From an uncultured Gammaproteobacteria bacterium (GTDB lineage Bacteria; Patescibacteriota; Microgenomatia; Levybacterales; UBA12049), in NCBI GenBank assembly GCA_964635045.1, contig CAZWMJ010000003.1, forward strand, positions 12,011 to 76,010: a stretch of 64,000 nt of DNA. Direction: 5' to 3'. Position 1 is the stretch's first letter; the number at the start of each line of letters is the position of its first letter. Positions 1 to 55,148 of the stretch are shown here, in pieces. The notes under the pieces are model-generated. The model worked only from the letters and a program-made list of their open reading frames with translations, was not told where the DNA came from and made no database searches. The position numbers were made by a program, and so were the translations under genes.

Positions 1-815
1 GCCACAACCACCTGTCAGCTTTACTGCTATTTGCCATCCCCATCGCCTTTTACTTTTTGAAAATCTATTGGCCAACCCCGCGTATTCGTTACTTGTTTCT
101 TGTTACTTGTTTCTTGTTACTTGTTAGTCTGTTTCTTACTTTAGGCCGCGCTTCGATGCTATCCCTGTTTATCGCTTCGATCATCGGTCTGTTGTTGGTG
201 AAACTAACTGTTAAACAGCGGATGGCGATAGCATTGACTATAGGAATTTTATTCACTCTTTTTGCTCTGCCGTTTGGCTTTGGCTTTGTCAAGAATAACT
301 TCCCCGCCAAAGCGAAAGTGGACATCGCAAGACAAGATATAAACAGGCCTTTGTACTGGAGGTGGGCGGTTAAGAATCTCACCTTCCATCCTTATTTTGG
401 CACGGGCCTTGATACTTTCGGCAAAGTCAGCAAAGTGTCCTCTTTTCTGGAGAAATCAACAGCTTTGCGCTCGGATCACGTTCACAACTTTTTCCTGCAA
501 ATGCTCTCCGACGCCGGCATTTTTGGCTTCCTAACCAGCACCATTCTTATCTCCTCCGTTCTATGGCAAGCGCTAAGAAAGTTCAAAGTTCAAAGTTCCC
601 CGGCCTCGCCAAGCGAAGCGGGGCGGGCAAAGTTGAAAGTTGAAGAACGAAGTTTTTATTTAGCTCTCTTTGTTGGCTTATTCGCTTCAACGCTTAACGC
701 TTTGGTTGACTACGACTGGCAGCTTCCCAGCGTATTTTTAATTTTCTGGATGATGGGGGGAATGCTCACTTCTGCCAGCCAAGACGTCTGGCCGCGAAGA
801 GAAGTAGAAGATTGA
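1..815 (+). CDS. O-antigen ligase/Wzy-like polytopic membrane protein, C-terminal part. The frame is open from base 1, so the gene is truncated by the window edge.
   Basis: Frame 3 is open from position 3 through the TTG at 57 to the stop at 815. The product has multiple TM helices. It contains in-frame heptamer repeat tracts at 88-126 and 577-652. Confidence 0.45.
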   Translation, partial: HNHLSALLLFAIPIAFYFLKIYWPTPRIRYLFLVTCFLLLVSLFLTLGRASMLSLFIASIIGLLLVKLTVKQRMAIALTIGILFTLFALPFGFGFVKNNFPAKAKVDIARQDINRPLYWRWAVKNLTFHPYFGTGLDTFGKVSKVSSFLEKSTALRSDHVHNFFLQMLSDAGIFGFLTSTILISSVLWQALRKFKVQSSPASPSEAGRAKLKVEERSFYLALFVGLFASTLNALVDYDWQLPSVFLIFWMMGGMLTSASQDVWPRREVED

Positions 816-3565: not shown

Positions 3566-4560
3566 TTACAAGGAATCAAGTTAGTACTAGTCAAATAGTC
3601 AAAAATTTCATTGGCAAATAGTCTGTATCCTGCTTCGTTTGGATGCCAGTCTGGAAATGCCGTATCGGGTTTTATCAATTTTGGTAGCTGTCCATAAAAA
3701 TACACATTTGTATGTTCTCCAACAAATTTTTCTACGAGTTTTTTTTGGTGTTCATTAAACGCTTGAGGACTACCAGAAGGAGTACCTAGGATAACAAGAA
3801 TATTTTTATACATCCTGCGCAATGATTCCATAGCAGAGTACTGATACTGCAGTATTTTATCTTCTCCATATTGTTCTTCTAAATCACTTGCTGTTTTTGC
3901 GTTATAAGGATAAAAATTATCTCTATTCTGGTATTCTTCTAATTGTCCATTTTGTTCCATCTGTTTTCGGTATATTTTAGATTTTTCTAAATCTTGATCT
4001 AGTATGTGTCTAAAATCATCATTCTTTAATAGCCATAAAATTACATCTGGATTATATTTAAGACCTCGTTTTTTGAATCGTGTTATCGCATATTCAATAT
4101 CATACCCTCCCACTCCTAGATTTATCACTTCAAATTTTTTGATATTTTTGCATTGCAGTCTGCTGTTCAATAAATCTTCAAGTTTTTCTGGATAATTATC
4201 CTTTGTATTGACATATAGACCATATGTGAAAGAATCGCCGAGGGTAAGTATTCTAAACGTGTTTTGTGCTTTTTCAACCGAATATTCGTACCGCTCATTT
4301 AAACCTTCTGCATTTATAGTTATTTCATACTTATAGTCATCCGGTAACCAGGACGGTTTGTTGTTGATATTTCTGTTCGGTTTAAATTCATAAAAATATT
4401 TGAGATCGCCGTCTTCTGAAAAAATGAGATCGGTTTTCATTATTGGATTTATCCTCGTTGTGCTAAGGACATCTTTTGACTTCCTATACATGTTAAATCC
4501 AATCAAGGCAATCATTATCAGTTCAGTTGCAATAAAAAGTAAAATAAATTTCTTTTTCAT
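3562..4560 (-). CDS. SGNH/GDSL-family hydrolase with N-terminal membrane anchor
   Basis: GDSFTYG block (ILTLGDSFTYG) and an N-terminal TM helix. 4-nt overlap with the convergent upstream gene. Confidence 0.6.
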   Translation of the reverse strand: MKKKFILLFIATELIMIALIGFNMYRKSKDVLSTTRINPIMKTDLIFSEDGDLKYFYEFKPNRNINNKPSWLPDDYKYEITINAEGLNERYEYSVEKAQNTFRILTLGDSFTYGLYVNTKDNYPEKLEDLLNSRLQCKNIKKFEVINLGVGGYDIEYAITRFKKRGLKYNPDVILWLLKNDDFRHILDQDLEKSKIYRKQMEQNGQLEEYQNRDNFYPYNAKTASDLEEQYGEDKILQYQYSAMESLRRMYKNILVILGTPSGSPQAFNEHQKKLVEKFVGEHTNVYFYGQLPKLIKPDTAFPDWHPNEAGYRLFANEIFDYLTSTNLIPCN

Positions 4561-16108: not shown

Positions 16109-16789
16109 GTGTGCAGATTTTTACTTGTCAGATCAGAAAAAAAGATAAAGCCGCAAAAATTACTTAGCCAGTTTGCCAGCATGTGTCAAAAAAGCCGGGC
16201 GCCGGACGGGGATTGGCAGGGAGACGGATGGGGAATGGCATACAAAACTCAAAACTCAAAACTCAAAACTCAAAACTGGCAAATACATAAATCACTAAAG
16301 CCGATATGGGAGGAACGAGATAAATTTGGGCAGTTTGAAGAAACCAATGTATTTGTAGCTCATGCCAGAAGCGCCGGCTTCCCGCAACACAAAGGAAATA
16401 TTGCGTTTAATCAGCCTTTTATCGATAATGACCTGTGTTTTGTTTTTAACGGTCTGATTCGTGGTGTCACCGTTCAAAGAAAACTCAAAGGAGAAATCGG
16501 GGCGCAGAAGATTTTTAGTCTTATTCTTGAGGAGTTAGGTAGCAGTAAACCCGATGAGGTTCTTAAAACAGTTGACAAGTTGATTGTTGCCAACTCCAAA
16601 AAAATTACGGGGATGAATATCGGCTTGGCCAGAAATAACAAATTTTACCTTTTGTGCGAGTATGACGGTAACGCTTCTTATTTTGCTGTCAGATATTTTC
16701 AAAACAATGATTTAACGATTGTTTGTTCGGAACCAATCGGCAAATACGAGTGGAAAACAATGCAAAAAGGCGAGATTCTGGTATTGTAA
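16109..16789 (+). CDS. YafJ-type class-II glutamine amidotransferase-like Ntn hydrolase
   Basis: N-terminal Met-Cys nucleophile (MCRFLLV). DGDWQGDGWGMAY and HARSAGFP...NQPF blocks are typical of YafJ/class-II GATase domains. Contains an in-frame (AAAACTC)n tract at 16238-16275. Confidence 0.55.
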   Translation: MCRFLLVRSEKKIKPQKLLSQFASMCQKSRAPDGDWQGDGWGMAYKTQNSKLKTQNWQIHKSLKPIWEERDKFGQFEETNVFVAHARSAGFPQHKGNIAFNQPFIDNDLCFVFNGLIRGVTVQRKLKGEIGAQKIFSLILEELGSSKPDEVLKTVDKLIVANSKKITGMNIGLARNNKFYLLCEYDGNASYFAVRYFQNNDLTIVCSEPIGKYEWKTMQKGEILVL

Positions 16790-16797
16790 CTCATCGT

Positions 16798-18597
16798 ATG
16801 AGAATAAAAGAAGAATTACAACGGGTAATTAAGCAGATTGTAAGCGATCTGGGGGTGGAGGGGATAGAGCCGGTGATGGAGACGCCGGCTGTGCCGTCAC
16901 ATGGAGACTATTCGACAAATATTGCTATGGCAATATTCTCTAATTCAAAATTCAAAATTCAAAATTCAAAACTACAAGTCAAAACTCAAAAATATAAAAG
17001 TCCACTAGAGCTTGCCGAAGCCATTGCCGAATTGCTTAATACTAAATACCAAATACCAAATACTGACCTCATTGAGGCGGTCGCGCCCGGTTTTATCAAT
17101 TTCCATCTCTCCAAAGACTATTTGGTCGGTCGATTAAATGATCCGCTGTCTGAAAAAGAAAAGTTTGGGCAAACCGCTAGATTAAAAGATAAAAGTATCA
17201 TTGTAGAATTTACCGATCCAAATCCATTCAAAGAGTTCCATATTGGACATCTTTACAGCAATGTTGTGGGTGAGTCTTTATGCCGGCTTTTGGAAGCAAA
17301 TGGAGCGCGGGTTATGCGGGCAAACTATCAGGGAGATGTGGGGATGCACGTTGCAAAAGCCCTTTATGGGCTTTTGCAAAACTTAGAACTTAGAACTCCC
17401 CACTTCGCTAAAGCTTCGCGGGGCAAGCAGAACTCAGAACTGGATAAGAAACCACTCGATGAACGGGCAAAACTTTTGGGCGAGGCGTATGCGTTGGGAG
17501 CAAAAGCTTACGAGGGAGATGAGACGGCCAAAAAAGAGATAAACGAGCTCAACAAAAAAATTTACCAGAAAGAGCCGGAGATAATGGATCTTTATGAAAA
17601 GGGGAGGCAGTGGAGTTTGGATTATTTTGAAACTATTTACAAGCGTTTGGGAACTAAGTTTGATTTCTATTATTTTGAGAGTAAGGTGGGAGAGATTGGC
17701 TTAAAACTGGTCAAACAGTATGTCAGTGAAGGAATTTTTGAGGAAAGCGAGGGGGCGGTGGTTTTTCCGGGCAAACAATTTGGTCTTCATACCAGAGTTT
17801 TTATTAACTCCCAGGGATTTCCGACCTATGAGGCAAAAGAGCTTGGGCTTGCTCCCACCAAATATGAGGATTTTCCCTACGATCAATCTATTATCGTCAC
17901 CGGTAATGAGATTATTGAATACTTCAAGGTGCTGATGGCGGCTCTTGCCAAGATTCGGCCCGACTTGGCTTTGAAAACCAAACATATTCCTCATGGCATG
18001 GTGCGGCTTAAGCAGGGGAAGATGAGTAGCAGAACCGGCGATGTGGTGACAGGGCAGTGGCTGTTGGATGAGACTAAAGGAAAAATAAAAGAGCGGTTTT
18101 CGGAAATTAAGGATGAGGTGGCAGAGCAGGTGGCGGTGGGAGCGGTTAAGTACGCTCTGTTAAAAAGCGGTTTGGGCAGAGACATCGTTTTTGATTTTGA
18201 AGAATCAATCAATTTAGAAGGCAACAGCGGGCCGTATTTGCAGTATACGTACGCTCGTACACGTAGTGTACTCGCAAAATCTAGAATTCAGAATTCAGAA
18301 TTCAGAATTAGCCTCGCAAGGTCTCACCTTGCGAGGCTAGAAGTTGAGGAATTAGTTCTTCTTCGTCTGCTTCATAGATTTCCGGAAGTAGTGGGGGAGG
18401 CGGCGGAGAAATTTACTCCCAATTTTTTGTGCAATTATCTTTTTAATTTAGCCCAAGCCTTTAATCTCTTTTACCAAAAACACCAAATTATCGGCAGTCA
18501 ACAAGAGGCTTTTCGTTTATCCCTCACTCGTGCTATCGGCCAAACTCTCAAAGAAGGATTAGATCTTTTGGGGATTGTCGCCCCCCAGAGAATGTGA
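16798..18597 (+). CDS. argS: Arginyl-tRNA synthetase
   Basis: Class-I HIGH motif FHIGHLYSNVVGESL; KMSSRTGD (KMSK-type) motif; DALR anticodon-binding C-terminus. Start moved to the ATG at 16798 just after the upstream stop. Carries several in-frame heptamer tracts and a 13-bp palindrome. Confidence 0.9.
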   Translation: MRIKEELQRVIKQIVSDLGVEGIEPVMETPAVPSHGDYSTNIAMAIFSNSKFKIQNSKLQVKTQKYKSPLELAEAIAELLNTKYQIPNTDLIEAVAPGFINFHLSKDYLVGRLNDPLSEKEKFGQTARLKDKSIIVEFTDPNPFKEFHIGHLYSNVVGESLCRLLEANGARVMRANYQGDVGMHVAKALYGLLQNLELRTPHFAKASRGKQNSELDKKPLDERAKLLGEAYALGAKAYEGDETAKKEINELNKKIYQKEPEIMDLYEKGRQWSLDYFETIYKRLGTKFDFYYFESKVGEIGLKLVKQYVSEGIFEESEGAVVFPGKQFGLHTRVFINSQGFPTYEAKELGLAPTKYEDFPYDQSIIVTGNEIIEYFKVLMAALAKIRPDLALKTKHIPHGMVRLKQGKMSSRTGDVVTGQWLLDETKGKIKERFSEIKDEVAEQVAVGAVKYALLKSGLGRDIVFDFEESINLEGNSGPYLQYTYARTRSVLAKSRIQNSEFRISLARSHLARLEVEELVLLRLLHRFPEVVGEAAEKFTPNFLCNYLFNLAQAFNLFYQKHQIIGSQQEAFRLSLTRAIGQTLKEGLDLLGIVAPQRM

Positions 18598-23198: not shown

Positions 23199-23981
23199 TT
23201 AAACTTGATTTTGAAGTACAAATTTATAGAGAAGAATTGCAAACAAGACCGTTATTAGATAAGAAATTATCACTCCTAAAAAAATTCCATACAAAGGTAC
23301 AAAAAAATAAAAAGCTACTGCAAAAAGAATAGTTCCTATAGTCCCATGAGGGATTGTGCGAGCGGTTGATGCTGTATAGTTAATGCCGTGGGTTTTTGAC
23401 AGTAATATGAGTGAAGAAAAAATACCAGCCGGAAAACTTCCCATTAAACCACCCCAAAGTGGTCCTAACAATTTAGCTAATAAAACAGCAGTTGCTATAA
23501 CTCCTCCTGAAAATAATACTCGAAAAAGGAAATTTTGTAGCGTTGATTTAAAAGCAGTAGGTTTTCTGTGGGGATAGCTATTAAGAAAAAGAATTGTAAT
23601 GAGAGTAATAATAGCGGCAAGAAGCAGTGATATCCAGATATTCTTTAAATTTATTAGAAGTAGTGGGAGGGTAAAAATAAACCAAACAAGCGCCCCGCCC
23701 CCAGATGCTAAAATTCGACCATATTTGTAGAAACGAATGAACGCTATGATGAAAAAAGAGTTTAGCGCCACGGCTACAGGTACAATTGGGATGGCGGCAA
23801 CAGCTTCTTTGGAGCTTTGGGTCCAGGCAAGAAAAATAAGAGTGAGAAGGATGGTAGAGGGAAGACCAATAAAGAGTCCGCCAATTTTTGATCCGTATCT
23901 TTCTGATAGCCAAATTGTTGTCGCAATATAGGTGCCACCAAAAAGAAAAGACAGTAATAATTTAATCGCGAATAGGTCCAT
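23199..23981 (-). CDS. Polytopic membrane protein of unknown function
   Basis: 260 aa with about 8 TM helices and no motifs. Stop abuts the asparaginase-like gene stop. Confidence 0.4.
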   Translation of the reverse strand: MDLFAIKLLLSFLFGGTYIATTIWLSERYGSKIGGLFIGLPSTILLTLIFLAWTQSSKEAVAAIPIVPVAVALNSFFIIAFIRFYKYGRILASGGGALVWFIFTLPLLLINLKNIWISLLLAAIITLITILFLNSYPHRKPTAFKSTLQNFLFRVLFSGGVIATAVLLAKLLGPLWGGLMGSFPAGIFSSLILLSKTHGINYTASTARTIPHGTIGTILFAVAFYFFVPLYGIFLGVIISYLITVLFAILLYKFVLQNQV

Positions 23982-24117
23982 AAATAGTATTATAACACTT
24001 TTTATCTTCCCGCATTCTCACACAAATTCAATAATTAATCGCCACCCCTCTTTTTAGTAGGGAGTTTCAGTCAAAAAATGGATGCCAAACTTGATAGACT
24101 TCAAAATATTCTTGATG

Positions 24118-24165
24118 GATTTGTTGGGCGGGGTAACTGGATTCGAACCAGTGACCTCTCGGTCC
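24118..24165 (-). pseudogene. tRNA 3'-half remnant (anticodon-loop to CCA; Pro-like)
   Basis: Sense strand GGGACCGAGAGGTC-ACTGG-TTCGAAT-CCAGT-TACCCCGCC-CA. The anticodon-stem 3' strand and variable loop are identical to the adjacent tRNA-Pro, but there is no 5' half. Confidence 0.45.
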
Positions 24166-24182
24166 CGCCCGCCTAAATTCTG

Positions 24183-24254
24183 TCGGGGATGACAGATTTG
24201 AACTGTCGACCTCTCGGTCCCGAACCGAGCGCGCTACCGCTGCGCCAATCCCCG
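24183..24254 (-). tRNA. tRNA-Pro (anticodon CGG)
   Basis: Manually folded: acceptor CGGGGAT/ATCCCCG; D-arm GCGC-AGCGGTA-GCGC; anticodon stem CTCGG/CCGAG with loop TTCGGGA; T-arm GACAG-TTCAAAT-CTGTC. Confidence 0.8.
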
Positions 24255-24428
24255 AATTTTTGGCGGGCTACCGACCCGCTTCGCCCAAGCTTCAGCGAGG
24301 CGAGTGAACTAGTCTCCGCAGCTTTTTTCATTGTATTTTATTGTATCTTCAAATGCAAATTATTACATGATGGATAGAGCAGTCCCGTTCTAGTTAACAA
24401 ATGAGGTTTTATATAGTACTTTAGAATA

Positions 24429-25091
24429 ATGAGTAAAATAAGGTTAACACAGATAAAAATTCAGAAAATTAAAAAATTGAGAAGTCAGGGATGCAGTTTG
24501 CCTGAAATTAGCAATGAATTACATATTCCGAAGACAACGGTATTTAGATATGTTCAAGACGTCGAGATTTTGCCGGAGTTTTTAAGAGACTGGTCGATTA
24601 AGCGGGGAGGAAGCAGAAAAAGAAAGTTGCTAAAAGAAACAAAAGCATATGAAGAAGGCAAAAAGCTGGTTGGAAAATTGTCTGATAAGGAGAAAGCACT
24701 ATTTTTATCAGCTCTTTACTGGGCAGAAGGCAGTAAAGGAGATTTTGGATTATCTAATACAGATGGGATGCTTATTAAGATATTTGTAACAGGATTGCGA
24801 GAAGTATTTCATGTTACAGATGAGAGGTTAAGAATAAGCGTGCGTTTATATGAGGATTTAGATAAGGAAAAAAGCTTGTCTTTTTGGTCGCAAATTGTTA
24901 ATATACCAAAGGAAAGGTTCGTGGGAGTTAACATTCTTGCTGGAAAGAAAAAAGGAAAGCTTGAGCATGGAATGTGTAGAGTTAGAGTGTTAAAAGGAGG
25001 AGACCTGCTTAAAAAGGTAAATGGAATCAATAAGGCTGTTATTGAAGCGTTTGTCCCTATAGCTCAATTGGATAGAGCACCCCGGTCCTAA
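24429..25091 (+). CDS. HTH-domain protein with LAGLIDADG-like motif (possible homing-endonuclease-like protein)
   Basis: N-terminal HTH (LRSQGCSLPEISNELHIPKTTVFRYV); central LSALYWAEGSKGDFGL resembles a single LAGLIDADG block. The 3' end overlaps tRNA-Arg by 39 nt. Confidence 0.3.
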   Translation: MSKIRLTQIKIQKIKKLRSQGCSLPEISNELHIPKTTVFRYVQDVEILPEFLRDWSIKRGGSRKRKLLKETKAYEEGKKLVGKLSDKEKALFLSALYWAEGSKGDFGLSNTDGMLIKIFVTGLREVFHVTDERLRISVRLYEDLDKEKSLSFWSQIVNIPKERFVGVNILAGKKKGKLEHGMCRVRVLKGGDLLKKVNGINKAVIEAFVPIAQLDRAPRS

Positions 25092-25126
25092 CGGGGAGAT
25101 TCCCAGTTCGAGTCTGGGTAGGGATA
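25053..25126 (+). tRNA. tRNA-Arg (anticodon CCT)
   Basis: Acceptor GTCCCTA/TAGGGAT (G1-U72); D-arm GCTC-AATTGGATA-GAGC; anticodon stem CCCCG/CGGGG with loop GTCCTAA; T-arm CCCAG-TTCGAGT-CTGGG. Confidence 0.75.
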
Positions 25127-25128
25127 CA

Positions 25129-26325
25129 TTATTTTAGACTCACCGTGTACAGATTGGGGGAAATGGCGGGATTGCCAAGATTAGTCAGTACGACTACCTT
25201 TGATCCATTAGGCCATGGAAATACATAGTTATCCAAAAAGGGTCCGGCATAGATGGTGGTGGCATTGGTGCCGTCATATTCCATCACCTCTATTTTTTTA
25301 TCGTGAACATAAACAAGATGTCTTGAGTCGGGAAACCAAGTTAGAGGAGATGGGGAATTAGCCAGAGAATCAAGCGCTTTGAAGTTTTTATCCTCTTTAA
25401 TGTCATAGACATAAACAGCGTCTTTTTTTATATCTCTCTGCTCCGCTGTCGAATCAGCGCCTATCAGTCTGGGGGAGATGATGATGGGGAGAGTGGCGGA
25501 ACTACTTGCCTGATAAAGAATCTTTGTCTCATCCGGCGACCAGGAGACGATATTGAAATTATCATTAATTTGTTTTTGCAAAGCGGGTTTAAGGCCGCTG
25601 AGGCGGGCTTTTTCTTTTTCGTTTTTTTCCTGCTGCTGAGCTTCTTTGAGGCTGGCAATAGTGGCCGTCACATCTTTGGGATCCTGATTAAAGCCCCCGG
25701 CGCTTAATAAATATATGGTTTGATCGCTGTTGTCCCGGGAAATGGTGGTTAATAATTCTTTACCGTCAGGAGACCAGACAAAGTCGGCTTTGGAAAATAA
25801 GTCTGCCGTGTCGTCAGTTATTTGGCTTGCGGCCGATTGCAGGGTTAAAATGGGTTTTTGGGTCATATCCAGCACATAAATGCCGTTTTTTCTGGCCGAT
25901 TGGGAAGCGACCCGATAGGCAAGTCTCGTTAAAGATGGATCAACCACCGGATTTTCCACACCGCTTGAGGTAATATTTTCCAGTTTGGGGGCGGTGGGGA
26001 AAAGAAGTGCCTGAGCTTTCGCCACCACCTCTTTTTGGACGGTTATTTCTTTTTCCCACGGAAAATATCCTTCCTTAAAGATGCGGACTTTGTATTTTCC
26101 CGGGGATAGATTGATGGTGTTGTCGGTGGCAGTGGTCAGGTGGCCGTCAATAAATACCGAAGCGCCGTCCGGATCGCTGGTGGCCACCAAAAGTCCCGTT
26201 CCCAAAAACTCCGGCCTTCCGCTGATTATGCCGAAACGGTAGCCTCTGCCGTATAAAACAACAATGGTTGTGCCCAAAAGCAAGAATAAGAAAATTAACA
26301 GCGGGATAAGTATTTGTCTTTTCAT
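25129..26325 (-). CDS. Membrane-anchored PEGA-domain plus TolB-like beta-propeller protein
   Basis: N-terminal TM; GASVFIDGHLTTATDNTINLSPGKYKVRIFKEGY is a PEGA-type motif. Repeated WSPDGKELL / WSPDETKILY / WFPDSRHLVYV blades. Confidence 0.5.
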   Translation of the reverse strand: MKRQILIPLLIFLFLLLGTTIVVLYGRGYRFGIISGRPEFLGTGLLVATSDPDGASVFIDGHLTTATDNTINLSPGKYKVRIFKEGYFPWEKEITVQKEVVAKAQALLFPTAPKLENITSSGVENPVVDPSLTRLAYRVASQSARKNGIYVLDMTQKPILTLQSAASQITDDTADLFSKADFVWSPDGKELLTTISRDNSDQTIYLLSAGGFNQDPKDVTATIASLKEAQQQEKNEKEKARLSGLKPALQKQINDNFNIVSWSPDETKILYQASSSATLPIIISPRLIGADSTAEQRDIKKDAVYVYDIKEDKNFKALDSLANSPSPLTWFPDSRHLVYVHDKKIEVMEYDGTNATTIYAGPFLDNYVFPWPNGSKVVVLTNLGNPAISPNLYTVSLK

Positions 26326-37760: not shown

Positions 37761-38657
37761 TTAGGATAATGTTGAAAAATCTATTCTTATTCCAGGAGAC
37801 ATAGTACTTTTTAGTGTTACGCTTTTGATTTTCCCGTTGCCGATGGCTGATAGAACAGCTTGAATGTTGTCTGTCAACTGGTTATCCGTCATGGATAGTT
37901 TGCCCACCGATAGATGGATGATAGGAGCTGTTTCTGTTTTGAAGCGAAGCTGATTGCCTTTCGATAAGCTCAGGGCAAGTTTCCCCGGATCATTGGTGAT
38001 GGTGCCGTTTTTGGGATTGGGCATGAGCCCTCTGGGGCCCAAGATTTTGGCCACTTTGGCTAATTTCGCCATCATGTCCGGCGCGGCAAGGAGCACATCA
38101 AAATCAATCTTGTTTTTTTCAATTTTACCGATTAACTCATCCGTAGCAATCGCCACTCTAATTTGTTTGCCGGTGCCATGGGGAAGATTTACATTGCCGG
38201 AAAGACCTTTTTCTGTGGTATTAACATGCAGTTCAACCGTGCCGTCAATCCGCCAGCTGGCGGATACCTTCCTTAAAAGCTCAAGTGCTTCGGCGAGAGG
38301 ATAGCGTTTAGTTCGGTCAACTGCCACCAATGCCTGTTTGTAGCGGCGGCCTCGCTCACGGGGATGGGTATCACGAGGGGTACGGGTATCACGAGTATCA
38401 CGGGGAATTTCTCCCTGTGGTACCTGTGGTACTTTTTCACCCTGTGATACCTCTATTTTGGCCTGCCCGCCAGTTGCTTCGCCGTCAGGCGATGGCAGGC
38501 GGGCCAGCTCTTCCTCGCTTGGTCCGACAGCCACCACTCTCTCTCCGCCATGAGCGCCTTTGACCAATTTTTTAGCCTCTTTTCTTTTTTTATCCTCTTT
38601 TTTTTGTTCTTTCTCGGCTTCTTCAATGCCGAGAGTCTTAACACGAATTTTTCCCAT
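37761..38657 (-). CDS. rplA: Ribosomal protein L1 with ~100-aa Lys/Pro/Arg-rich N-terminal extension
   Basis: Conserved L1 core (YPLAEALELL...GNVNLPHGTGK...LGPRGLMPNPK). The extension (38340-38657) contains the PRDTRDTRTPRDTHP repeat and is GC-rich. Confidence 0.8.
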   Translation of the reverse strand: MGKIRVKTLGIEEAEKEQKKEDKKRKEAKKLVKGAHGGERVVAVGPSEEELARLPSPDGEATGGQAKIEVSQGEKVPQVPQGEIPRDTRDTRTPRDTHPRERGRRYKQALVAVDRTKRYPLAEALELLRKVSASWRIDGTVELHVNTTEKGLSGNVNLPHGTGKQIRVAIATDELIGKIEKNKIDFDVLLAAPDMMAKLAKVAKILGPRGLMPNPKNGTITNDPGKLALSLSKGNQLRFKTETAPIIHLSVGKLSMTDNQLTDNIQAVLSAIGNGKIKSVTLKSTMSPGIRIDFSTLS

Positions 38658-49320: not shown

Positions 49321-49356
49321 TGTTTTGTCAAGAAAGCGGGCAGGCCAGATTCGATG

Positions 49357-49429
49357 TGGCAGGGATGCCAGGATTCGAACCTGGAAAAGCAGTTTTGGAG
49401 ACTGCCGTGATACCGTTTCACCACATCCC
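49357..49429 (-). tRNA. tRNA-Trp (anticodon CCA), CCA encoded
   Basis: Acceptor AGGGATG/CATCCCT; anticodon stem GCAGT/ACTGC with loop CTCCAAA; T-arm CCAGG-TTCGAAT-CCTGG; 3' GCCA. Confidence 0.85.
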
Positions 49430-49484
49430 TACGTTGCTAGTTTCTCAGGGTAAAACCTATTCATATTAAAAAGCTAGGAAATAT

Positions 49485-49660
49485 TATTTCAGTTTTTCTG
49501 TTTCTTTGTGATCGGTGCGTTTGCGGCAGTGTCGGCAATACTTTTTCAACACCAGCTTTTCCGGCGTGTTTAATTTATTGCGGCTGGTAATATAATTTCT
49601 GTTTTTACAAACAGCACAAGTGAGTCCCAAAGTAACTCTGTGTTCGCCTTTTTTCGCCAC
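49485..49660 (-). CDS. rpmG: Ribosomal protein L33
   Basis: Translation (GTG start) MAKKGEHRVTLGLTCAVCKNRNYITSRNKLNTPEKLVLKKYCRHCRKRTDHKETEKLK, with two CxxC pairs. Not in the supplied ORF track because it is under 60 aa. Confidence 0.7.
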
Positions 49661-49820
49661 TTCGTCGCTTTGCCAAGTCAGACTTGGCTTTGCTTCTCAG
49701 CGCAAGCATTTAATCGCTTGAACTAAAAAGCTACCTCCTTCTTTAGAGTTTACACCGATGTTGCTTAAAAAGCAACAGAATGTGAGCCGGCGATGGGAAT
49801 CGCCCGCCTTGCCATTTTTG

Positions 49821-49892
49821 AGCCGACAGTGGGAATCGAACCCACGCTCAATTCATTACCAATGAATCGTTTTGCCACTAAACTATGTCGGC
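49821..49892 (-). tRNA. tRNA-Thr (anticodon GGT)
   Basis: Acceptor GCCGACA/TGTCGGC; anticodon stem ATTCA/TGAAT with loop TTGGTAA; T-arm GTGGG-TTCGATT-CCCAC. Confidence 0.8.
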
Positions 49893-49937
49893 TAAGTTAA
49901 TATATTTTACTTGAAGATTTAAAAAAAACAAGTACGG

Positions 49938-50021
49938 TGCTAAGGGAGGGAATTGCACCCCCGAAGCCCTTTCGGACGTCTGGTCTACAGCCAGATGCGA
50001 TTGCTACTCCGCCACCTTAGC
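49938..50021 (-). tRNA. tRNA-Tyr (anticodon GTA) with long variable arm
   Basis: Acceptor GCTAAGG/CCTTAGC; D-arm GCGG-AGTAGCAA-TCGC; anticodon stem TCTGG/CCAGA with loop CTGTAGA; long variable stem CCGAA-AGGGC-TTCGG. T-loop TGCAATT is atypical. Confidence 0.7.
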
Positions 50022-50069
50022 CTAATTAGCCACTAGCAACTAGCCGCTAGCGTTTAGTTTGAGCCTCCT

Positions 50070-50140
50070 GACAGAATCCCCGCCTGCCAAAGCTTCCGCC
50101 GCTAACTGCGTAAGCTGTAGGCGGATGCGGGCAGGGAACT
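50070..50140. other. Structured GC-rich spacer between tRNA-Tyr and tRNA-Thr
   Basis: Nested hairpins ccccgcctgcc...ttccgcc-[loop]-ggcgga...gcgggcagg. The same CCCGCCTGC / GCGGGCAGG pair recurs at 50325-50373. Confidence 0.25.
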
Positions 50141-50177
50141 GTCGTCATATGTTTATCCCAGAAAATTCAGCCGACTC

Positions 50178-50251
50178 TGGAGCCGACTGTCAGACTTGAA
50201 CTGACGACCTGCTGTTTACAAAACAGCTGCTCTACCACTGAGCTAAGTCGG
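50178..50251 (-). tRNA. tRNA-Thr (anticodon TGT), CCA encoded
   Basis: Acceptor GCCGACT/AGTCGGC; D-arm TAGCTCAGTGGTAGAGC; anticodon stem GCTGT/ACAGC with loop TTTGTAA; T-arm GTCAG-TTCAAGT-CTGAC; 3' TCCA. Confidence 0.85.
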
Positions 50252-50680
50252 CTAGAATTTACGGGATCCCGTAAATCTAAGCCAATTTTATCAAAATTGG
50301 CAAGATTTTACTGGGGCAAAACAGCTGCCCCGCCTGCAATTGCCTTCGGCAAAAAGCCGATGGCGGGCAGGCTGGAACATTTTCATTTTACCAAACAATA
50401 TACTGGGGGACAAGTCCTTGCTCAGGAAGTAAAAAAAGAAGAATAAGTTCATCTTTGGTACAGAGTGCGACTTGGATTTTCCCCAAAACAGACAATTAGG
50501 AAGACTCATCTGCTGACCAAGGCCAACAAATATGCGTCTTGTCATCCGCCATCACTTTTAAGATGTTGGCGGACTACCTCATTAGCGCTGAATTTGTGGA
50601 GGAAAATACTCCAAACTTACTCTTATACCAAAGAACAATAATAGCATATAAGAAATAAAGGCGGATGTCAAGATTTTGGT

Positions 50681-55071: not shown

Positions 55072-55148
55072 ATTCCGTCCTTCATCATTTATACTTCATC
55101 CCCCGCCTGCATCGCTTTGCGAAGCATTGCGGGCAGGTTAATCCTTAG

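Follow-up and report, generated by a model that had tools for sequence, protein, structure and literature searches.

The window, that is, the whole stretch of 64,000 nt of contig CAZWMJ010000003.1 that was analysed, contains, between positions 24125 and 25127, two complete tRNA genes, an ORF that overlaps one of them and several pieces of older tRNA genes, the coordinates of which were listed in Table 1. The tRNA-Pro(CGG) and tRNA-Arg(CCT) genes were both found to be uninterrupted by ARAGORN, and a search for group I introns with Rfam in E-value mode over positions 23500-25700 returned just the two tRNAs. The tRNA-Pro(CGG) gene, already reported in a preliminary description of this DNA, was recovered by both programs on the minus strand.

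Table 1. Positions, strands and supporting evidence of the features identified at the locus
Feature	Position in the window	Strand	Basis
3' half displaced from an older tRNA-Pro(CGG), spanning anticodon CGG through acceptor and CCA; the "scar" of the preliminary description	24125..24167	-	nhmmer, 15-nt identity, position in relatives
Right flank of inner tRNA-Pro, AGAATTTAGGCGGG	24168..24181	-	Counterpart ..TAGGCGTTAGCAGGCG in L081, L082, L013
Inner, working tRNA-Pro(CGG)	24182..24254	-	ARAGORN; Rfam tRNA 66.4 bits, E 1e-13
Left flank of inner tRNA-Pro: palindrome arm GCCCGCC (24262-24268) and small GC-rich hairpin	24255..24303	-	Motif in relatives and fold
15-nt 5' remnant CGGAGACTAGTTCAC of another tRNA-Pro(CGG) allele	24304..24318	-	Read from sequence; aligned in A3 with the L081 outer 5' half
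Promoter-like site preceding the tRNA-Pro nest, TTTGCA-N18-TACAAT	24330..24359	-	Consensus scan, 9/12 matches; consensus match only
5'-half remnant (D loop to position 37, ATGGATAGAGCAGTCCCGTTCTA) of an older tRNA-Arg(CCT)	24370..24392	+	Match to family consensus
Putative ORF promoter: -35 TTAACA, 17-nt spacer, -10 TACTTT, end 6 nt before ATG	24394..24422	+	Conserved pattern in aligned loci
220-aa ORF: HTH, helical linker, LAGLIDADG-like C-terminal domain	24429..25091	+	Homologues, AF2, I-DmoI profile match, dN/dS
Inner, working tRNA-Arg(CCT)	25053..25127	+	ARAGORN; Rfam 60.6 bits

Downstream of the tRNA-Pro(CGG) gene, after a gap of 14 nt, lies a tRNA 3' half of 43 nt (48 nt with the preceding GGCGG included), which reads CGGGACCGAGAGGTC-ACTGGTTCGAATCCAGT-TACCCCG-C-CCA on the minus strand, TACCCCG being the acceptor strand of an older tRNA-Pro(CGG). 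It was not called by Rfam at E<=10 and was matched at E=2.6e-4 in 0.68 Mb, over model positions 33-71, by an nhmmer profile built from 40 tRNA-Pro(CGG) genes. A run of 15 nt from the anticodon to the variable loop is identical to the intact tRNA-Pro, and the T arm and acceptor strand are unlike those of the intact gene. Clearer outer 3' halves were found at the equivalent place in L081, L082, L013, L003, L055 and L033. With this position and the nhmmer match, the fragment noticed in the preliminary description proved to be real, as the right-hand shell left by an older tRNA-Pro. The GGCGGG of the right flank represents the degenerate right arm of a GC-rich palindrome and was paired by RNAfold with the arm in the left flank, whose motif CCTGCCCGCCAA.. 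recurs at the equivalent place in L081, L082, L084, L013 and L026. The 15-nt remnant beyond the left flank, too short for nhmmer, has the same sequence as the beginning of the L081/L085 inner tRNA-Pro, and the promoter-like site before the nest is conserved in L081. Neither this remnant nor the tRNA-Arg 5' remnant had been recorded in the preliminary description.

Comparison with relatives revealed the same organization in more complete form. In L081/L085, L082, L084, L013 and L006, a complete tRNA-Pro flanked by GC-rich palindrome arms of the type CCTGCCCGC..GCAGGCGGGG sits within the anticodon of an older tRNA-Pro, as a cassette of about 110 nt, and in L006 the nest is two levels deep. Because these relatives have matching 5' halves upstream, the intact tRNA-Pro of the window is, by this comparison, an inner gene inside a split older gene, so that a disrupted resident tRNA-Pro(CGG) and a spare of the same anticodon occur together in all of these loci and in the window. 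The outer halves pair perfectly with each other in L081, L082 and both shells of L006; in the window and L013 the outer 5' and 3' pieces belong to different alleles and are unable to pair. The inner gene is enclosed by the same flanks inside different outer alleles. At least 12 loci, drawn from many studies, have nests with consistent junctions; the nests of L081 and L085, which come from two independent assemblies (ENA and JGI, respectively), are identical. The L081 nest folds as a cloverleaf with the inner tRNA on the anticodon arm (-85 kcal/mol, z -4.0). Four full copies of the GC-rich imperfect palindrome are dispersed in the window, where zero were expected, and form stable hairpins with z-scores of -2.0 to -4.7; related palindromes were found in L021, L024, L029, L042, L065 and L086.

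Several candidate sources of the tRNA-Pro cassettes were considered and set aside. A tyrosine-integrase crossover does not fit the junctions, which have GG in common and not an overlap region of 6-8 bp. In L083 and L012, a convergent gene for a large serine recombinase of 524 aa overlaps the 3' end of tRNA-Pro(CGG); the tRNA-Pro there is un-nested and no such gene is present in the window, and the recombinase is probably a separate element. Neither an attP nor a parent tRNA was found in the viral contigs when the 3' portions of the fragment and the intact tRNA-Pro were used in exact searches. The cassette flank motif CCTGCCCGCCAATNGCAACGC had three matches in viral contigs, taken as chance matches in coding DNA of 64-67% GC, and the more than 120 matches to the predicted joined-ends cassette pattern were assumed to be of a similar kind.

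On the plus strand, an analogous arrangement surrounds tRNA-Arg(CCT). Its 5' remnant differs from the half-tRNA family consensus by 1 mismatch in 21, and none of 1564 control windows came within 5 mismatches; with up to 8 of 21 mismatches allowed, the consensus was found in 47 of 88 loci versus 22 of the 1564 control windows. At the distance seen in the window, 683-700 nt ahead of the intact gene, more than 15 loci carry tRNA-Arg 5' halves (model positions 1-37; nhmmer E 3e-8 to 1), clear ones being those of L071, L084, L017, L065, L082 and L041 among others. L040 and L086 retain outer 3' halves, which are compatible with the acceptor strand of the L069 5' half; covariation between the upstream halves and 3' halves was not seen. 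The old half carries 0 to 13 mismatches across loci, and its part from D loop to anticodon has been kept beside the promoter in many lineages. It runs straight into TTGACA-N17-TAnnAT-N6-ATG, a pattern conserved as GTCCTAG-TTGACA..TAnnAT..(6 nt)..ATG across 83 aligned loci; in the window the hexamers are weak and were missed by the consensus scan. The spacing of 6 nt from the -10 box to ATG implies that this predicted promoter is placed for a leaderless mRNA. Since the old 5' half ends at position 37 upstream of the ORF with the promoter directly after it, the ORF and its tRNA-Arg are, as judged from these boundaries, nested inside a split older tRNA-Arg. A disrupted resident tRNA-Arg(CCT) with a spare of the same anticodon was found across CPR.

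The first 39 nt of tRNA-Arg(CCT) double as the last 12 codons and the stop codon of the ORF, in agreement with the overlap given in the preliminary description; the stop TAA consists of the third anticodon base and the next two bases. A total of 495 homologues of the ORF were collected, and the family occupies the same site in about 300 species of Patescibacteria (CPR). In 79 of 80 loci, tRNA-Arg(CCT) adjoins the ORF or overlaps with it, at a spacing of -102 to +35 nt and with ORF identity down to 37%, and the ORF ends within the tRNA in 57 of the 80; the stops fall in all three reading phases, and therefore the juxtaposition is conserved rather than a C-terminal peptide. The ranking of ORF identity roughly tracks taxonomy, from Microgenomates to Parcubacteria and Saccharibacteria. 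The ORF of the window is intact with all conserved residues kept, and its dN/dS of about 0.2 indicates that it is under purifying selection, so the term "remnant" used in the preliminary description does not apply. Dependence of the ORF on its own tRNA-Arg(CCU) through AGG codons was also considered; AGG makes up 21.8% of the Arg codons of the family versus 14.5% in background open frames, which was too weak, and 9 of 83 ORFs are without any AGG.

The encoded protein has the two elements noted in the preliminary description, an HTH and a single LAGLIDADG-like block. The HTH occupies residues about 8-45 and is followed by a linker with a conserved KRGGS. In the window protein alone it is weak (HTH_38, E 2.8e-4, below the Pfam cut-off); over 100 family members it is consistent, with HTH_23, HTH_7 and HTH_38 matched in 38-55 members. 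The C-terminal domain opens with the helix LSALYWAEGSK (residues 93-103, nt 24705-24737), the most conserved part of the family. Residue E100 is invariant in alignments A1 and A4 and conserved to at least 90% in the broad alignment A2; G101, N110 and W153 are invariant in family alignments, and Y97, W98, K103 and D112 are conserved to at least 90%.

A relationship to LAGLIDADG homing endonucleases such as I-DmoI is supported by profile comparison. With the domain profile A4, the top match among PDB sequences was the PDB copy of I-DmoI at E 9e-5, at I-DmoI residues 102-149, i.e. the second motif, a stretch which we take to carry the catalytic E117. An hhalign comparison of the family with a hand-entered I-DmoI sequence gave a probability of 89.7%; with I-CreI the motif was in register and the match was not significant. 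The motif LSALYWAEG has the form of a LAGLIDADG helix ending in a conserved acid and then Gly, LYWAEGSK corresponds to LYVAEGDK in domain 2 of I-DmoI with the next strand and helix also aligned, and the acid and lysine are conserved across the ORF family, which also resembles LAGLIDADG genes in lying at an insertion inside a conserved RNA gene. The family differs from these enzymes in having an N-terminal HTH and only one motif, which would require a homodimer, and in carrying a duplicate of the interrupted gene instead of residing in an intron or intein. The alignment spans only about 48 residues, and the predicted topology departs after the first 50 residues: the AF2 model (pLDDT 85.5) has the order alpha-beta-alpha-beta-alpha-beta-beta-alpha versus alpha-beta-beta-alpha-beta-beta-alpha in the LAGLIDADG core. 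The window protein had no match to the curated Pfam LAGLIDADG profiles (LAGLIDADG_1, _2, _3 and WhiA type) at E<=10, no LAGLIDADG profile was among the top families of the 100 members, and searches of Pfam, NCBIfam and PHROGs yielded no nuclease family for CPR members; one viral member reached E 0.16 and 12.6 bits with LAGLIDADG_3 (cut-off 22.5). Among the best 50 Foldseek matches in PDB and BFVD there was no LAGLIDADG protein, the best being IspF-type sandwiches at E about 1e-2. The covariance-model and nuclease-profile searches suggested in the preliminary description thus recovered neither the tRNA-Pro fragment (Rfam) nor a nuclease family (Pfam), while more sensitive profiles found both.

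Distant relatives of the ORF were identified on 34 viral contigs of 11-527 kb, most of them over 70 kb, where they sit in the tRNA gene arrays of very large viral contigs. A tRNA gene was found near the relative (-30 to +200 nt upstream or -60 to +130 nt downstream) in 28 of the 31 analysed, and several of the viral ORF ends abut a tRNA 5' end. No 5' half remnants were found upstream of the viral ORFs, which are simply intergenic between tRNAs. A tblastn search of GenBank phages with the window ORF and one viral relative gave no match.

Signs of mobility at the locus are supported by the nested tRNA genes and by a block common to the window and L085, one of five loci obtained in a metagenome scan with the ORF. 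This block of about 1 kb extends from 24120 to 25134, from the end of tRNA-Pro to the end of tRNA-Arg. The ORFs of the two loci are 96.8% identical in nucleotides and 96% in amino acids (dS 0.09, dN/dS 0.2), and the MreB and PEGA proteins of the two genomes are 76% and 52% identical in amino acids, respectively. A block with the ORF and the tRNA genes thus appears to have been transferred; this signal is drawn mainly from one genome pair and could reflect an assembly path switch at conserved tRNA sequences.

We lean, with somewhat better than even confidence, towards a homing-endonuclease-like element with a spare tRNA in place of an intron, two tRNA genes at this locus each having been replaced from inside. 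The unit of promoter, ORF and complete tRNA-Arg(CCU), about 735 nt, resides inside an older tRNA-Arg(CCU) split after position 37, with the old 5' half just upstream of the -35 box, and its own tRNA-Arg is now the working gene and also supplies the stop codon of the ORF. For the nuclease activity, target site, homing and addiction logic, we infer the following. In tRNA-Arg(CCU) genes without the unit, or with variant alleles, a homodimer may act on the palindromic DNA of the anticodon stem-loop; the gene would be cut, and repair would copy the unit and flanking DNA into it. No intron or intein would be required because the unit carries a spare tRNA. Since the working tRNA would be transcribed from the promoter of the unit, the unit would be hard for the host to lose, which would explain its fixation across CPR. 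The tRNA-Pro nest is a structure of this kind that lacks an ORF.

The strongest competitor to this model, which we regard as somewhat unlikely, is that the ORF encodes a domesticated DNA- or RNA-binding protein, a descendant of a homing endonuclease now vertically inherited as a CPR housekeeping factor comparable to WhiA, with the nesting as an ancient frozen accident and no present mobility; such a protein might bind the tRNA-like DNA next to the -35 box of its gene and so regulate tRNA-Arg(CCU). Presence at the same site in about 300 species, strong purifying selection, the D-loop-to-anticodon part of the old half kept by the promoter in many lineages, and an identity ranking roughly in line with taxonomy would all be expected of it, and near-universal presence at one site in a superphylum, as also expected of a vertically inherited host gene, counts against homing. 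The homing model is further weakened by the short alignment of only about 48 residues with departing AF2 topology and no LAGLIDADG match in Pfam or Foldseek, and the tRNA-Pro cassettes with their palindromic flanks are left unexplained by an endonuclease. However, E100, which is aligned with the catalytic acid of I-DmoI, K103, N110 and D112 are invariant or nearly so, which is unexpected once cleavage is lost; the viral relatives in tRNA arrays look like free-standing mobile genes; the dS of 0.09 was obtained against a genome whose MreB is 76% identical; and the range of 0 to 13 mismatches in the old halves is easier to reconcile with scars that differ in age than with a single ancient event.

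The remaining alternatives concern mainly the tRNA fragments. The preliminary description had read the 3' half as the footprint of tRNA-targeting integrases or of a homing event. In the case of a classical integrase footprint, an element bounded by tRNA-Pro and the 3' half (attL..attR) would since have been lost by deletion, and the ORF would be unrelated cargo. The start of the fragment in the anticodon loop agrees with this, as work ascribed to Williams (in 2002) is said to list this loop as a known integrase crossover sublocation, and so does the recombinase gene overlapping tRNA-Pro(CGG) in L083 and L012, although the tRNA-Pro beside the L083 gene is un-nested. Islands that mark their ends with a displaced tRNA fragment are described in the Islander work (PMC4383910), and this too speaks for a footprint. 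We nevertheless consider such an origin improbable. Only 14 nt separate gene and fragment; the window has no integrase, a recombinase tblastn found nothing there, and the neighbouring genes are housekeeping genes with no phage genes among them; the intact gene is not a chimera of host 5' and element 3' parts, because its acceptor stem pairs perfectly; its identity with the fragment is limited to 15 nt that stop short of the 3' end, with a different T arm and acceptor; the junction shares GG and not 6-8 bp; and the matching 5' halves of relatives are never produced by 3'-regenerating integration. What was supported of that description was the LAGLIDADG relationship of the ORF, the residence of its family at tRNA loci and the signs of mobility. 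Very little probability was assigned to an RNA-level design, in which the nested genes are intron-like or split tRNAs. Once RNase P and RNase Z had freed the inner tRNA, the outer halves, joined by a helix of the GC-rich flanks, would be spliced or would work in trans, as in the split tRNAs of Nanoarchaeum. Flanks of split tRNAs are GC-rich and complementary, as are those of the nest, and the cloverleaf fold of L081 and the perfect pairing of outer halves in L081, L082 and L006 would suit it; against it, the outer pieces of the window and L013 cannot pair, one half only survives in many loci, the upstream tRNA-Arg halves do not covary with 3' halves, and a BHB splicing endonuclease is not known from bacteria. 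Equally slight is the chance that fragments and common block are artefacts of metagenome mis-assembly at conserved tRNA sequences: the L085 block does have its boundaries at tRNA genes, which are places where an assembler may change path, but the same nest was assembled independently in ENA and JGI data, consistent junctions recur in at least 12 loci with many studies represented, and the ORF-tRNA-Arg arrangement recurs in 80 genomes.

Beyond the spare-tRNA homing model, we tentatively put forward, at appreciably less than even weight, a broader idea in which selfish DNA invades the tRNA anticodon loop and brings a complete spare tRNA rather than splicing out, existing in autonomous and ORF-less forms and held by a throttle. 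The autonomous form would comprise the promoter, the HTH-LAGLIDADG gene and tRNA-Arg(CCU), and would owe its fixation across Patescibacteria to driving transcription of the only working tRNA-Arg(CCU). In the ORF-less forms, palindrome arms around tRNA-Pro(CGG) would still be turning over and stacking like Russian dolls. Because the ORF stop is usually inside the tRNA, an endonuclease mRNA could be either processed by RNase P or translated productively, but not both, which may provide a built-in throttle on the nuclease.

Similarities to several known systems were examined. The GIY-YIG enzyme SegB of T4 is encoded in an intergenic position between tRNA genes, recognises a tRNA-gene motif and drives the inheritance of itself and the surrounding tRNA genes (PMC2330249). 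The present locus is similar in that an endonuclease-like gene lies among tRNA genes, its viral relatives sit in tRNA arrays and a block of ORF and tRNA genes was seemingly transferred; in contrast to SegB, the family is LAGLIDADG-like with an HTH, is fixed in the cellular genomes of a whole superphylum, and is embedded in a split tRNA gene with its stop codon usually inside a tRNA. In tRNA-dependent lysogeny, a prophage disrupts a host tRNA without rebuilding it and supplies an isotype-matched tRNA of its own, and the host becomes dependent on the prophage; the elements are complete prophages that have tyrosine integrases, and the common core measures about 10 bp (PMC10865867). Disruption of a resident tRNA by an element that brings the same isotype is shared, whereas the elements here are about 110 nt and about 735 nt, have no integrase or phage genes, and place the spare tRNA inside the disrupted gene. 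Islander islands (PMC4383910) share the presence, downstream of an intact gene, of a tRNA fragment beginning in the anticodon loop, and differ in that here there is no island or integrase, the gap is 14 nt, 5' fragments occur too and the intact gene is non-chimeric. The short GC-rich imperfect palindromes, dispersed in the window and forming stable hairpins, resemble REP/REPIN-type palindromic repeats, reportedly treated by Bertels and Rainey in 2011, except that here an entire tRNA gene can be bracketed by the two arms, within a further tRNA gene.

Homing endonuclease genes survive in essential genes by means of introns or inteins, or beside their target. The present arrangement appears to be a mode, not described before, in which selfish DNA occupies an essential gene, and if this holds, a tRNA-interrupting endonuclease-like gene with a replacement copy would be a further solution for survival, fixed superphylum-wide and with relatives in viral tRNA arrays. 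The nested tRNA-Pro genes show that tRNA genes can be overwritten from inside, which bears on the origin of split and fragmented tRNA genes, and the overlap of stop codon and tRNA raises the question of coupling between tRNA maturation and translation. A compact HTH-LAGLIDADG enzyme recognising tRNA-gene DNA would be a possible tool if active. For annotation, tRNA halves such as these are easily mistaken for integrase scars. The model would also give a function to a widespread unannotated CPR protein family, the members of which are currently labelled "hypothetical" or "HTH domain-containing".

The locus contains two gene-in-gene tRNA replacements, one of which carries an intact HTH-LAGLIDADG-like gene (hereafter the ORF) that is fixed across the Patescibacteria (CPR); no description of such a gene-in-gene tRNA arrangement was found in the searchable literature. 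The tRNA-Pro gene, the tRNA 3' half beside it, the ORF and its 39-nt overlap with tRNA-Arg, as pointed out in the preliminary description, were all confirmed. Both intact tRNA genes were recovered by standard tRNA calling, which missed the 3' half: this piece received no Rfam call at E<=10 and was matched at E 2.6e-4 by a profile built from 40 tRNA-Pro(CGG) genes. It is separated from tRNA-Pro by the 14-nt spacer AGAATTTAGGCGGG (minus strand reading) and is identical to the intact gene over 15 nt, and its T arm and acceptor strand are unlike those of that gene.

Features of the window that bear on the tRNA replacements
Feature	Position	Strand	Remarks
tRNA 3' half from anticodon on	24167..24125	-	CGGGACCGAGAGGTC ACTGG TTCGAAT CCAGT TACCCCG C CCA
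tRNA-Pro(CGG)	24254..24182	-	ARAGORN and Rfam
15-nt 5' remnant of different tRNA-Pro allele	24318..24304	-	
tRNA-Arg 5'-half remnant	24372..24393	+	one mismatch to GGATAGAGCAGNCCCGTCCTAG
ORF, 220 aa	24429..25091	+	stop TAA formed by last anticodon base and next two bases of tRNA-Arg
tRNA-Arg(CCT)	25053..25127	+	ARAGORN and Rfam
GC-rich palindrome	38462-38502	+	inside 298-aa open frame 37761..38657 (-)
Half copy of palindrome	49336-49344	-	
GC-rich palindrome	50080-50135	-	
GC-rich palindrome	50330-50371	-	
GC-rich palindrome	55103-55137	-	

A total of 495 homologues of the ORF were found at E<=1e-3, and 93 clusters were obtained at E<=1e-30 in a search without word index; the nearest homologues (60-96% identity) belong to Levy-, Davies- and Gottesmanbacteria and are named 'hypothetical' or 'HTH domain-containing'. 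A scan with one genome per species revealed relatives in 300 stretches, from which 80 loci, nearly all from Patescibacteria or mislabelled uncultured MAGs, were kept. With a confident AlphaFold model (pLDDT 85.5) and a dN/dS of about 0.2 against the nearest relative as well, the ORF does not fit the remnant element first proposed for this locus. At the N terminus its product carries an HTH of the resolvase/transposase type, with matches to HTH_23, HTH_7 and HTH_38 in 38-55 of 100 members. Contigs with this CPR-specific gene are often labelled 'uncultured Gammaproteobacteria' (L002, L004, L005, L008 and others), or 'Bathyarchaeia archaeon' in the case of L077, and are probably mislabelled or misbinned MAGs.

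tRNA-Arg(CCT) follows the ORF on the same strand in 79 of the 80 species loci, down to 37% protein identity. The gap from stop codon to tRNA start ranges from -102 to +35 nt, and the stop lies within the tRNA in 57 loci, with overlaps in all three reading phases. It is TAA at the anticodon in 21 loci, TAG at tRNA positions 8-10 in 15, and TA plus the first tRNA base G1 in 10. The conserved feature is thus the juxtaposition of ORF and tRNA-Arg, not the C-terminal peptide. The sole exception, L053 (3780-4700), carries an intact tRNA-Arg(CCT) at 3819-3891, ahead of the ORF, and a decayed pseudo-tRNA-Arg after it; this may reflect a second replacement of the tRNA, on the opposite side of the ORF. 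The ORF-linked tRNA of L059 (2853-2926) was called 'Pyl (cta)' by ARAGORN, probably out of register; alignment identifies it as tRNA-Arg(CCT), position 33 being C instead of U. AGG codon use gave a weak signal only. An arginyl-tRNA synthetase gene at 16723-18597 (+), 6.5 kb from the ORF/tRNA-Arg(CCU) module, is probably a coincidence.

In many lineages a tRNA-Arg(CCT) profile detected a tRNA-Arg 5' half at 683-700 nt before the intact gene (best E 3e-8); these halves cover positions 1-37 and end in ..GTCCTA. Of 88 loci compared at the expected place, 47 had at most 8 mismatches in 21 to GGATAGAGCAGNCCCGTCCTAG vs 22 of 1564 control windows, and 24 had at most 5 vs none of the controls. G-TTGACA directly adjoins the 5' half, TAnnAT comes 17 nt after it, and a further 6 nt or so lead to the start codon; the two boxes form a sigma-70-like promoter, positioned for a leaderless mRNA. 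Outer 3' halves directly follow the intact tRNA-Arg in L040 and L086, and their TGGGAGC end pairs with the GCTCCCA start of the L069 5' half. The upstream halves, the promoter and the surviving outer 3' halves together indicate that promoter, ORF and complete tRNA-Arg form a unit placed at position 37/38 of an older, split tRNA-Arg. The upstream halves, which have decayed by 0 to 13 mismatches and show no covariation with the working 3' halves, are not exons.

The tRNA-Pro side is built in a similar way: profile searches turned up tRNA-Pro 5' halves that precede intact genes. L081 reads, in order, outer 5' half (..TTCGG), CCTGCCCGCCAATAGCAACGC, complete inner tRNA-Pro, AGATAGGCGTTGGCAGGCG and outer 3' half (GGGA..); the outer halves pair perfectly with each other, and the whole region folds as a cloverleaf with the inner tRNA on the anticodon arm. 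An identical nest is present in L085, which was assembled independently. In L082, L084 and L013, similar inner genes with these same flanks lie within different outer alleles, which argues for one compact cassette inserted repeatedly; the family-1 nests have the two G's of the anticodon at both junctions. Viral matches to the flank motifs were dismissed as chance matches. L006 (1-487, minus strand) has tRNA-Pro(CGG) three genes deep, A[B[C]], in two nested levels; both outer genes have perfectly matching halves, and the flanks are of a second, AT-rich family (CCCCGTAAAAAATTT .. TGAAATTTTTACGGGG). At least one tRNA-Pro half occurs in about 12 of the 44 loci with an adjacent tRNA-Pro(CGG). The window holds a worn example of such a nest, in which the 3' half with its TACCCCG acceptor strand is the right shell and the degenerate arms GGCGGG and GCCCGCC still pair. 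Since its outer halves mismatch, at least two events must have taken place, separated by deletions. In L082 (about 440-520, minus strand) and the window (24270-24303), dead tRNA-Pro 5' halves carry extra GC-rich hairpin inserts of 35-46 nt within the D loop region, and the two are alike (CTCGCT..GGG.GAAGCG).

The 3' half had been taken for the footprint of an integrase or of a homing event; it is instead the outer shell of a nested tRNA-Pro, and no integrase or phage gene was found within +/-9 kb. A 524-aa large serine recombinase gene (L083 3228-4799 and L012 2302-3855) converges on tRNA-Pro(CGG) and overlaps its last 17-20 nt. It adjoins the 3' end of an un-nested tRNA-Pro, was set aside as an explanation of the locus, and probably belongs to a separate integrative element using the 3' end of the same tRNA. 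It is followed in L083 by LexA-like, DUF2188 and DUF8370/8371 genes, and L015 retains a 51-aa remnant. A group I intron was also considered, and none was found by Rfam.

The LAGLIDADG-like block of the ORF was borne out as a motif, with no match above threshold to a curated family profile. The C-terminal domain matched nothing in Pfam, NCBIfam or PHROGs, the full-length family profile retrieved only HTH proteins among PDB sequences, and Foldseek returned weak IspF-type sandwiches only. With the domain-only profile A4, which includes viral relatives, the best PDB sequence was the archaeal intron endonuclease I-DmoI (E 9e-5, residues 102-149; hhalign probability 89.7%). The matched segment spans I-DmoI's second motif, LYVAEGDK, with its catalytic E117, and also the strand and helix that come next. 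Against I-CreI, hhalign placed the motif in register with a non-significant score, and Pfam LAGLIDADG_3 was touched by one viral member (E 0.16). E100 (the aligned acid), G101, K103, N110 and D112 show no or almost no variation. From these alignments we conclude that a genuine LAGLIDADG-type motif stands at the start of the domain; the domain itself is at most a candidate for the LAGLIDADG fold, since its predicted topology departs from that fold after the first 50 residues.

A pattern scan found ORF relatives of 22-32% identity in 34 IMG/VR contigs (11-527 kb, most >70 kb), all with LYW[AG]EGxK. In 28 of the 31 analysed a tRNA gene lies near the ORF (-30..+200 nt upstream or -60..+130 nt downstream), and several ORF ends abut or overlap the tRNA 5' end. 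Free-standing homing endonucleases, T4 SegB among them, occupy this niche. SegB recognises a tRNA motif and drives the inheritance of itself and the surrounding tRNA genes (PMC2330249). In the viral contigs L219, L233 and L235 the flanking tRNAs are on the opposite strand, so that the ORFs, which have no 3' spacer of their own, read through the tRNA complement; those of L219 and L233 end in ..AGFEPAS / ..GIEPTTV type peptides from the complement of the T arm.

The inferred mechanism is homing, in which the palindromic anticodon stem-loop DNA would be cut; the spare tRNA, standing in for an intron, would bind the host to the element. As the main rival, the ORF would encode a binding protein that has been domesticated and is inherited vertically. 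L001, the nearest genome on MreB (94%), shares just 74% identity in the ORF. Between the window and L085 there is a shared block, 24120..25134, from tRNA-Pro end to tRNA-Arg end, at 90% nt identity (ORF 96.8% nt, dS 0.09); beyond it only MreB aligns (74% nt), and MreB and PEGA are 76% and 52% identical in amino acids. These identities are consistent with homing in which the flanks are co-converted; a switch of assembly path at conserved tRNA sequences is another possible origin.

Four copies of the pattern CCTGCCCGN(10-40)GCAGGCGG are present in the window, against an expectation of none. This repeat, written CCTGCCCGC..GCAGGCGG(GG), is a GC-rich imperfect palindrome with a stable hairpin in each copy, and its arms are the same as the flanks of nested tRNA-Pro in relatives. 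Related palindromes occur in other CPR loci, once within a tRNA-Pro fragment (L042), and may either be mobile or act as RNA-processing stems. Two of the window's copies fall between the genes of a tRNA cluster (49.3-50.3 kb), in which Thr(TGT), Tyr, Thr(GGT) and Trp (49357-50252, -) are interspersed with the palindromic repeats.
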